Virus record (IMG/VR): IMGVR_UViG_2913167280_000010
Location: 1-49,852 of that record
Length of the DNA: 49,852 bases
Origin: a virus
Taxonomy: Duplodnaviria; Heunggongvirae; Uroviricota; Caudoviricetes
Reading direction: 5' to 3' (one strand)
Position 1 is the stretch's first letter. Each line of letters opens with the position of its first letter. The position numbers and the translations under genes are program-made. This document shows, one piece after another, positions 10,375-11,430 of the stretch. The notes below the pieces were generated by a model, which did not search any database, was not told where the DNA came from, and saw nothing but the letters and a program-made list of their open reading frames with translations.

Positions 10375-10923
10375 ATGAAATTTAACTCATTAGGGATTTT
10401 GATTAGCTCACTGCTATTTTCTGGTGTTTCTCATGCAATTGATGCCACAGAGAGAATGAATGACATTCAACAATTTGGTAAATGGTATTATGCTGAGTTT
10501 ACCATGCCTACCACTATGGCTTATCGTATTGGTGTTGAATCCAAATTGCCGCAGGATAAATCAACTTTATTTATTGATATATCACCGTTAACTCAATGTG
10601 AGCCCGGTGATGTAACTGTCAATTATTTTATTGGATATAAACAAATGGATTTACCACCGTACCTTCCTGTAAGCTATAAAATCAGTGGACAACAAAAGCA
10701 GGACTCTATAACAACCCCATCTATCAATGAAAGTTACTTGTTCAGCCCTATTAGCTCATTAAAGATTAGTGATTTGTTAAAATCTAAAGGGAAAGGTAGT
10801 TTTTCTTTTTGGTACACTCCGCCAACTGAAAACAAAGAAAAACCACAAAAAATATTCTTCCCATTAGATGGCCTTCCGGAAGCATATAAGGCTGCAATCA
10901 ATTCCTGTAAAGAAAACATGTAA
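10375..10923 (+). CDS. Secreted protein of unknown function (182 aa, signal peptide)
   Basis: N-terminal signal peptide (LLFSGVSHA-ID); AT-rich; opposite strand to the flanking baseplate genes; start 10 bp from the divergent J-like gene. Confidence 0.6.
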   Translation: MKFNSLGILISSLLFSGVSHAIDATERMNDIQQFGKWYYAEFTMPTTMAYRIGVESKLPQDKSTLFIDISPLTQCEPGDVTVNYFIGYKQMDLPPYLPVSYKISGQQKQDSITTPSINESYLFSPISSLKISDLLKSKGKGSFSFWYTPPTENKEKPQKIFFPLDGLPEAYKAAINSCKENM

Positions 10924-10932
10924 AATCAGGCA

Positions 10933-11430
10933 GTGATATTTATGATGCACGCCTTTCTCGAAGTAGGTAAACGCTTTGCTACTTGGATCACCGAGCGAAT
11001 CAGCGAGTATGAATTCGTAGAAAATCAGGACTTTTTGATTATTTCCCAAAATCGGGAAAAAATCGATAGAGGCATACCAGCTAAAGACTACCACCTCATC
11101 CTGGACACCGCCAAAGAACTGGCAATGGTCGAGCGCAACGAAAAAGGCTGCCAGATCCGCCGATACTTCATCGAGTGCGAGAAGAAGCTGCGCGAAGAAA
11201 CCACCAGCACACAATCCCCTCTGAATGTTGACATCATCATGCGCGTCAGAAACGGCTCCGTTACCCACATTGAGCACCACAAATCAGGCTCAGTTATAAC
11301 CACAGAATGGGTAATTCACTTACTACGCAAAAGTGGATGGATTGTCATGCCACGCGATGAACTTCTTAACACGCCACTGGCCCAACTGATGCCCGAAAGC
11401 TTGCCTCAAACCGGAACCTGCGTCCGGTAA
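10933..11430 (+). CDS. AntA-domain protein (antirepressor-family, KilAC-type)
   Basis: Motif DYHLILDTAKELAMVERNEKGCQIRRYFIECEK is characteristic of the AntA/AntB family; follows the secreted-protein gene on the plus strand. Confidence 0.7.
   Translation: MIFMMHAFLEVGKRFATWITERISEYEFVENQDFLIISQNREKIDRGIPAKDYHLILDTAKELAMVERNEKGCQIRRYFIECEKKLREETTSTQSPLNVDIIMRVRNGSVTHIEHHKSGSVITTEWVIHLLRKSGWIVMPRDELLNTPLAQLMPESLPQTGTCVR

Follow-up and report, generated by a model that had tools for sequence, protein, structure and literature searches.

In this study we analysed a 49,852-nt stretch of viral DNA (IMG/VR record IMGVR_UViG_2913167280_000010, hereafter the window), which is a Rac-type, cdtABC-carrying, contractile-tailed (myoviral) prophage of Escherichia coli. 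Within its tail genes lie two plus-strand open reading frames (ORFs; 10375-10923 and 10933/10942-11430): a gene for a 182-aa protein, which we call p182, and a gene with an AntA domain, which we call ant. The place they occupy, the junction between a gene for a 115-aa protein and the gene for the J-like baseplate protein, is a recombination hotspot for accessory genes, and p182 and ant are independent passengers that form no functional unit. The explanation of the whole that we favour, with moderate confidence, is that the hotspot holds here one of ten cassette types, with p182 being a genuine gene for a predicted exported protein that would act on the cell envelope and ant being a remnant.

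The evidence for the hotspot comes from 56 IMG/VR loci with the J protein, in which the stretch between the homologues of J and of the 115-aa gene was classified. Fifty-one are close relatives, with J at least 91% identical; four distant relatives, with J 34–47% identical, comprise three IMG/VR loci (L067-L069) and a Kluyvera locus (L013) found by scanning genome contigs with J. In these four the baseplate genes are 2–13 bp apart, and in phage P2 W and J are separated by 4 bp. In the close relatives, both the 51 IMG/VR loci and E. coli genomes, the gap measures 598–3138 bp and is filled by ten cassette types between J and 115-aa flanks that are ~99% identical. The most frequent content is a 386-aa protein with an HSDR_N domain (22/51 loci), followed by an LprI-like exported protein with ant (7/51) and by the protein that we call p179 with ant (5/51). 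Three types were found at four loci each, namely p182 with p154 (a 154-aa protein) and ant, p182 with a truncated ant, which is the window's type, and other membrane or exported proteins with ant. A p179-like protein with a YafO toxin pair occupies two loci, and one locus each holds p179 with a differently truncated ant, p154 only, and p182 with a ProQ/FinO protein, ant and the YafO pair. Between loci differing in cargo the J protein keeps 99% aa identity and the 115-aa gene is 96–100% identical. Likewise, E. coli prophages with shared baseplate flanks differ in what lies between them, and a 2.2-kb query gave partial matches in 199 of 5426 complete E. coli genomes, most of them to a ~110-nt stretch of ant only. 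Base composition also sets the cargo apart, since the guanine-cytosine (GC) content of p182 is 0.35 against 0.49 for J in the window, and 0.34–0.37 against 0.49–0.54 in four genera; the ant part is not deviant. The original prediction that the genes are inserted cargo, or a moron, is thus well founded. These comparisons make it exceedingly improbable that the two genes serve the baseplate itself, in virion structure or assembly. Their location inside the baseplate module speaks for it; against it, they lie on the strand opposite to the late operon, p182 has a signal peptide, most prophages with 99%-identical baseplate genes lack the pair (p182 is missing from 42 of the 51 in the IMG/VR sample), and both genes are absent from the distant relatives and from P2.

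Where are cassettes exchanged? The left boundary coincides with the start codon of the cargo, and a 21-bp spacer with its Shine-Dalgarno sequence is common to unrelated plus-strand ORFs. A near-identical spacer precedes p182, p179 and a third exported, lipoprotein-like ORF (L023), and the last two also have their 5′ signal-peptide codons in common. Because the spacer is conserved upstream of unrelated plus-strand cargo, it seems to act as a fixed expression socket into which cargo is swapped. The right boundary falls inside ant, whose N-terminal half is variable (nonsynonymous divergence, dN, 0.11–0.23) and whose C-terminal half is conserved (dN 0.012–0.024). Besides p182, the first position of the slot is taken in other variants by exported or membrane proteins, including p179, p154, the LprI-like protein of 248 aa, a 158-aa transmembrane protein and a 202-aa protein with multiple transmembrane segments. 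A relationship of p182 with its slot-mates p179 and p154 was considered and rejected, as there is no sequence relation.

Other cassettes lie on the same strand as the late operon. In such sister cassettes folding reveals a GC hairpin followed by a U-run ~20 nt before the J ATG, which the terminator scan did not flag; an ending of this kind is classical for morons. To read through these hairpins the late transcript would depend on antitermination, and a Q-like gene is present in the phage. The commonest occupant of the slot (22 IMG/VR loci; in L004 at 2095-3255, minus strand) has HSDR_N, the N-terminal domain of the type I restriction enzyme R subunit, as its only domain. Its gene runs in the direction of the late operon and precedes a strong hairpin with a U-run. 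As no PADLOC model matches it, we regard it as a candidate defence gene. In several slot variants (L003, L011, L043, L060) the YafO toxin travels together with its ~190-aa upstream partner.

The two genes of the window also assort independently. The only gene between J and the 115-aa gene in Buttiauxella is p182; the Salmonella p182 has the small RNA sRNA-Xcc1 and then a Bro-N gene after it; in Citrobacter and in phage Rac-SA53 p154 and then a full-length ant come next. In turn, ant occurs elsewhere with p179, with the LprI-like cargo or with membrane proteins. The original prediction had paired the secreted protein and the AntA protein as one unit of lysogenic conversion or superinfection exclusion. 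It is true that the genes are adjacent on the same strand, 18 nt apart, so that they are probably co-transcribed, and that the same pair recurs in six loci. Nevertheless, it was a deletion joining two separate transcription units that brought the genes together, each gene occurs without the other in related prophages, and full-length ant has its own promoter and small RNA leader. With the window's ant being a 5′-truncated remnant, as discussed below, we abandon the functional pair and consider a co-adapted two-gene unit very unlikely.

p182 is a genuine, selected gene. Its product matches PHROG 31333, a family annotated as of unknown function, over its full length (E 4.5e-126), and has no match in Pfam, NCBIfam or PADLOC. 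Homologues with 48–95% identity are found in E. coli, Citrobacter, Salmonella and Buttiauxella, and pairwise ratios of nonsynonymous to synonymous divergence (dN/dS) among the homologues from Escherichia, Citrobacter, Salmonella and Buttiauxella range from 0.11 to 0.25. The synonymous divergence (dS) of p182 from the Citrobacter-type allele of L060 is 1.48, compared with 1.27 for the flanking J gene. This similarity indicates that p182 has co-diverged with the phage backbone under purifying selection, its protein-level evolution being ~4 times faster than that of J. A profile search of 1.84 billion cluster representatives recovered 51 relatives, 38 of them at E ≤ 1e-10 and nearly all of 170–200 aa, and in the family (19–95% identity) residues W37, C75 and C178 are invariant. 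One 29%-identical member (L073 4264-6552) is found in antisense orientation between the genes for the tail-assembly chaperone and the tape measure in a lambda-like siphoviral prophage, as part of a tail-module island that also holds Gp49/HTH and YafO modules and a 197-aa partner. In E. coli RM9088 (H76, NZ_CP042298.1 1581939-1583264) an IS1A element interrupts the p182 gene.

The N-terminus of p182, MKFNSLGILISSLLFSGVSHA followed by ID, has a lysine, then a hydrophobic core and then S-H-A, as in a typical Sec signal peptide, and the pattern A-x-A followed by (V/I)D is kept in 36 of 36 aligned family members. The protein is thus predicted to be exported by Sec. It is probably disulfide-bonded, as the conserved pair C75/C178 would fit a periplasmic disulfide. 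AlphaFold2 gives a confident model of a beta-sandwich with a C-terminal helix (pLDDT 79.7 overall), in which residues 1–26 are disordered (pLDDT <50) and the mature domain mostly scores 82–95 per 10-residue block. The closest fold to this model is Bartonella IalB (PDB 3dtd; PF06776, COG5342; Foldseek E 1e-4, TM 0.72), and the mature domain is accordingly modelled as an IalB-like periplasmic beta-sandwich. The two proteins are 11–14% identical, and p182 differs from IalB in its conserved Cys pair and its C-terminal helix. p182 as a sequence relative of IalB was ruled out with single sequences, with 13- and 36-member alignments, with Pfam and with PDB sequences: none of the 36 members has a Pfam match to the IalB family at E ≤ 1, and the profile has no match to it among PDB sequences. 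The original description of p182 as an AT-rich protein with a signal peptide and no recognisable family therefore stands, and the homology and structure searches that it had proposed have added the PHROG match and the IalB-like fold.

What might p182 do? Because the protein is exported, by prediction, and selected, and because its slot-mates are also exported or membrane proteins, an envelope-directed role, benefiting the lysogen, is the best-supported reading. As for the specific role, superinfection exclusion appears the most likely, ahead of host fitness or virulence, and we propose it tentatively. From the periplasm, p182 might hinder the tail tip, the muralytic activity or the DNA entry of incoming phages, as T4 Spackle (Sp) does. 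Spackle excludes superinfecting phages by inhibiting the tail lysozyme gp5 in the periplasm; it belongs to a virulent phage and is made early in infection. The likeness serves as a working model only: both are small, periplasmic phage proteins, Sec-exported (as predicted for p182), and no sequence or fold similarity between them was found. In this phage the tail has a muralytic protein with an SLT domain, and the alternative cargo of the slot includes a protein named in RefSeq as an LprI-family lysozyme inhibitor.

Several observations weigh against exclusion. p182 has no sequence or fold similarity to Cor, Llp, Sp, Ivy, MliC/PliC, LprI or the PADLOC defence models, and the IalB fold is one without a defined molecular function. 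The tail-fibre tip is not linked to p182, as a receptor-matched blocker of the Cor or Llp type would predict, and the fibre C-termini are 26–99% identical among p182 loci; this speaks against such a blocker. Moreover, one distant family member is chromosomal, beside lpxB/rnhB, so that the family is not phage-specific. The location of this member beside lipid A genes and the unlinked fibre-tip alleles would also suit p182 as a host-fitness or virulence factor, a product of lysogenic conversion that would change envelope properties, stress or serum resistance or the interaction with host cells. This would fit a prophage that carries the cytolethal distending toxin (CDT) operon cdtABC, and the protein with the closest fold, IalB, has been linked to erythrocyte invasion in Bartonella, while IalB-domain proteins act in envelope growth in Rhizobiales. 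On the other hand, p182 and IalB are unrelated in sequence, the cargo found beside p182 or in its place is of a kind linked to phage conflict (toxin-antitoxin modules of the YafO and Gp49 types, the HSDR_N nuclease-like protein, the LprI-like inhibitor), and the gene is rare (19 of 5426 complete E. coli genomes), with no obvious restriction to a pathotype. We therefore judge a role in host fitness or virulence unlikely. A wider version of the exclusion proposal is that the p182 family is a new, rare periplasmic family with the IalB fold that has been captured repeatedly into tail-module slots of temperate phages as superinfection-exclusion factors, maybe blocking the muralytic or tape-measure step at the tail tip of incoming phages. 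The gpW/gpJ junction would then be an unmined reservoir of anti-phage genes acting at the envelope or inside the cell, among them the HSDR_N-only protein. This is a conjecture of which we are doubtful.

How p182 would be expressed follows partly from its orientation. The gene faces against the late operon and so cannot come from the late transcript, which would itself have to cross ~1 kb of antisense cargo to reach J; a plus-strand transcript would run into the 115-aa gene. Most likely a weak promoter lying within the 5′ part of J would drive transcription of p182 on its own in the lysogen, and translation would rely on the conserved 21-bp spacer and its Shine-Dalgarno sequence. The only promoter-like feature upstream of p182, read by eye, is a candidate extended -10 element, TGaCATAAT, overlapping the J start codon, which has the form TGACATAGT in the p179 and Citrobacter-type loci. 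This proposal is weakened by the fact that in some loci the element decays to CATAGT and that a consensus scan of 9700-12200 found no sigma-70 promoter and no terminator for the gene pair.

The second gene, ant, had been recognised by its AntA/AntB motif. The family assignment was correct (PF08346 AntA, 80.2 bits against a cut-off of 27, covering profile positions 6–68 of 68), but the gene is not intact, its first 25 residues and its upstream control elements being gone. The mechanical ORF starts at GTG 10933 (165 aa) and the start annotated in sister records is ATG 10942 (162 aa). Alignment of the window and of the phage record pPE4 with Rac-SA53 shows that ~815 bp are missing, from just after the p154 start codon to about codon 26 of ant, with the junction at ~10945/10946, where the start codon of the lost 154-aa gene is joined to about codon 27 of ant. 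The deletion removed the ant promoter, a ~230-nt leader with sRNA-Xcc1, the 154-aa gene and the 25 N-terminal residues of Ant. The ribosome-binding region at 10924-10941, which serves the 154-aa gene (rac61) in Rac-SA53, is reused for the truncated ant in the window. Full-length alleles encode 185–189 aa. A sigma-70 promoter, TTGACT-18-TACAAT, is present only in the full-length loci, and sRNA-Xcc1 (Rfam RF02221, 70–78 bits) lies directly upstream of full-length ant in L002 (7623-7886), L003, L005 and L007. In the window sRNA-Xcc1 has no match anywhere. The complementarity of this RNA to the ant translation start and to the upstream leader is weak (35/500 and 20/500 shuffles, respectively, were as good). 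In L060 a gene with a ProQ/FinO domain (PF04352, E 3.5e-15) lies just upstream of sRNA-Xcc1.

What the truncation has taken away suggests that the window's ant is probably a remnant rather than a working antirepressor. Across the wider family the first 25 residues are nearly invariant, and conservation reaches at least 90% at M1, Q4, L5, I6, F9, G11, E16, L19, L20, A23, R24 and L26. Residues 1–25 are absent from the window copy, whose first residue corresponds to residue 26. AlphaFold2 modelling of a full-length homologue places strand beta1 at residues 8–13, beta2 at 16–22 and the start of helix 1 at 23–30, so that the first 25 residues amount to half of the N-domain sheet. In addition, the window has Ile at T78 (DYHLTLD) and Cys at R95 (EKGRQ), both positions being at least 90% conserved. 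Six copies share this junction, of which L014 has a stop at codon 22, L028 has a frameshift and the other four retain the whole 162-aa ORF. Another truncation, of independent origin and at residue 54, has been classed as a pseudogene by the PGAP annotation in RefSeq.

The truncated protein might nonetheless function, as a constitutively co-expressed modulator of repressors or as a dominant-negative form acting against the full-length antirepressors of competing prophages, in which case the pair would be a working operon. The four intact copies, each with its own ATG and ribosome-binding site, count against our reading of ant as a remnant, since their ratio of nonsynonymous to synonymous differences (pN/pS) is 0.06–0.26 over a pS of 0.08–0.18, a pattern expected of a gene still under selection, unless recombination with full-length alleles brought the variation in. 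The in-frame ATG with an inherited working ribosome-binding region 18 nt past the p182 stop, the retention of the conserved C-terminal half and the Pfam AntA score, which is still 80 bits, point in the same direction. However, the truncation has cost the N-domain sheet two of its four strands and has removed 12 nearly invariant residues, the window has substitutions at two more conserved positions, its sub-lineage counts 3 nonsynonymous differences (nd) against 1 synonymous (sd), its closest sister, L014, carries the stop codon, and an independent second truncation exists. Besides, truncated alleles match different full-length ones (T_L001 equals the L005 allele), so that the low pN/pS may indeed reflect import by recombination. 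A functional truncated protein is in our view somewhat unlikely, and we keep to the reading of ant as a remnant.

In the sister prophages the full-length gene, with its own promoter and sRNA-Xcc1 leader, would trigger induction. The Rac-type immunity region of the window (41348-42598) has a 154-aa RacR-like HTH_3 repressor (42134-42598, plus strand) facing YdaS (41754-42056, minus) and YdaT (41348-41770, minus). No Peptidase_S24 autocleavage domain was found in the repressor and no LexA box in a search of the window, which makes full-length Ant a plausible induction trigger for the RacR-like repressor in the sister prophages. An SOS-controlled antirepressor logic was rejected because of the lack of a LexA box in the window. 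The arrangement recalls P22 immI (ant, sar), P1 c4-icd-ant and the LexA-controlled Gifsy antirepressors (PMC3121763), in that the antirepressor gene is far from the repressor and the repressor has no autocleavage domain. The full-length sister alleles, with their own promoter and sRNA-Xcc1 leader, resemble P1 c4/ant control in particular, if sRNA-Xcc1 is regulatory, as we suppose. Unlike these regulated cassettes, the window's ant has no promoter, leader or N-terminus and the window no LexA box, and the AntA domain differs from P22 Ant and the Gifsy proteins.

How does the junction compare with known cargo sites? The original prediction had called a baseplate module an unusual place for cargo, which overstates the case. 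Tail-module morons are well known, and an example is P2 fun(Z), annotated antisense cargo between the tail genes G and FI that blocks T5. lambda lom, HK97 gp15, T5 llp and phi80/N15 cor are other tail-module morons. As at P2 Z/fun, the junction has an accessory gene between conserved tail genes, with deviant base composition and present, absent or swapped in close relatives. Known tail-module morons, like p182, often face against the late operon or are independent of it, and they are often envelope proteins that exclude other phages. The concept of a tail-module hotspot has been described (PMC9122126; bioRxiv 10.1101/2024.10.15.618418). The present site differs from that of P2 in lying between the gene in the gpW position and gpJ, inside the baseplate wedge genes, which are contiguous in P2. 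The backbone also differs from that of P2-type morons, combining a Rac-type lambdoid early region with a non-P2 contractile tail, and p182 is unrelated in sequence to those moron proteins. New here are the position of the junction, among the baseplate wedge genes in Rac-type myoviral prophages, the putative expression socket at that junction and the uncharacterised family with a predicted IalB fold; the tail-module moron hotspot itself is of a known kind.

Prophage cargo slots are a rewarding source of anti-phage and host-modifying genes. The present slot lies within the baseplate genes of a prophage family that converts its host to CDT production, and most proteins in its first position are exported or membrane proteins whose function is unknown. 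Should p182 or other occupants of the slot exclude phages at the envelope, a new fold would join the short list of periplasmic exclusion mechanisms. The truncated ant bears on the inducibility of the CDT prophage, whose repressor lacks an autocleavage domain and whose likely trigger of induction is damaged.

Table 1. Features of the cargo slot and its flanks in the window.
Feature	Coordinates	Strand	Remarks
J-like baseplate wedge gene, left conserved flank of the slot	9127-10353	-	408 aa from ATG 10353
Candidate extended -10 TGaCATAAT overlapping the J start codon	10348-10356	+	read by eye
Spacer between the divergent starts, 21 bp	10354-10374		Shine-Dalgarno AAGAGG 10365-10370 for p182
p182 gene, 182 aa	10375-10923	+	signal peptide codons 1-21 (10375-10437)
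Short intergenic stretch with ribosome-binding region	10924-10941	+	alignment with pPE4 and Rac-SA53, columns 622-647
5′-truncated AntA-domain gene (ant), 162 aa	10942-11430	+	PF08346; probable remnant; junction ~10945/10946
115-aa gene in gpW/gp25 position, right conserved flank	11406-11753	-	phrog_7986, function unknown

The ORF listing and the sequence of the window place the two plus-strand ORFs at the coordinates first noted, and domain matches to the surrounding tail genes, all on the minus strand, agree with the layout as originally described. Both ORFs are wedged between the Baseplate_J gene and the 115-aa gene (Table 1), whose 3′ end overlaps that of ant by 25 nt (11406-11430). The J-like protein matches PF04865 Baseplate_J (E 1.3e-07) and the baseplate wedge subunit phrog_6 (E 4.7e-39). 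The mechanical J ORF reaches TTG 10365, and only with this start is the gap to p182 9 nt, close to the 10 bp first reported; the start annotated in PP818812, in KU052037 and in RefSeq is the conserved ATG 10353, which makes the gap 21 nt. The name gpW-like, given at first to the 115-aa neighbour, holds for size (115 aa in both) and for synteny (V-like, then 115 aa, then J-like), which are its only points of agreement with P2 gpW: the protein has no Pfam match, including gpW/gp25 (PF04965), and hhalign of its profile against P2 gpW gave no match (probability 0.1%). The contractile-tail genes around the slot on the minus strand encode a sheath (phrog_205), a 663-aa SLT-domain protein, a hub (phrog_196), a 237-aa protein in the V position, the J-like protein, a 208-aa protein, two fibres and a fibre-assembly protein. 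Rac-type features mark the early region: a RacR-like HTH repressor, YdaS, YdaT, RecE, RecT, the RalA small RNA and an integrase.

The same DNA is found in two phage records, PP818812 and Rac-SA53 (KU052037). The former (PP818812.1, L001), deposited as 'Actinobacillus phage vB_Apl-pPE4', shares 96.8% identity with the present E. coli prophage region over ~2 kb and has the gene order of the window over the 14 kb compared; its attribution to an Actinobacillus host looks doubtful. Situated just past the tail-fibre genes, in a low-GC block, the cdt operon of the window (1014-3114, minus strand; cdtA 2401-3114, cdtB 1583-2404, cdtC 1014-1586), with CDtoxinA and Exo_endo_phos domains, shares 88.9% identity with that of phage cdtI (AB285204). 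Its presence makes the prophage a CDT-converting phage. A second small variable region (11754-12069) lies between the V-position gene and the 115-aa gene, and in sister loci its length is anything from ~100 bp (pPE4, beyond its 45-aa ORF) to ~700 bp. In the window this region may encode a 49-aa protein with a transmembrane segment at its C-terminus, and the 45-aa transmembrane ORF of pPE4 is unrelated to it. Finally, the early and late-regulatory parts contain two transfer RNA genes, the sok antitoxin RNA (110 bits) and the RalA antitoxin small RNA (225 bits), at 33691-33841, 36288-36436 and 48118-48296 (minus strand).

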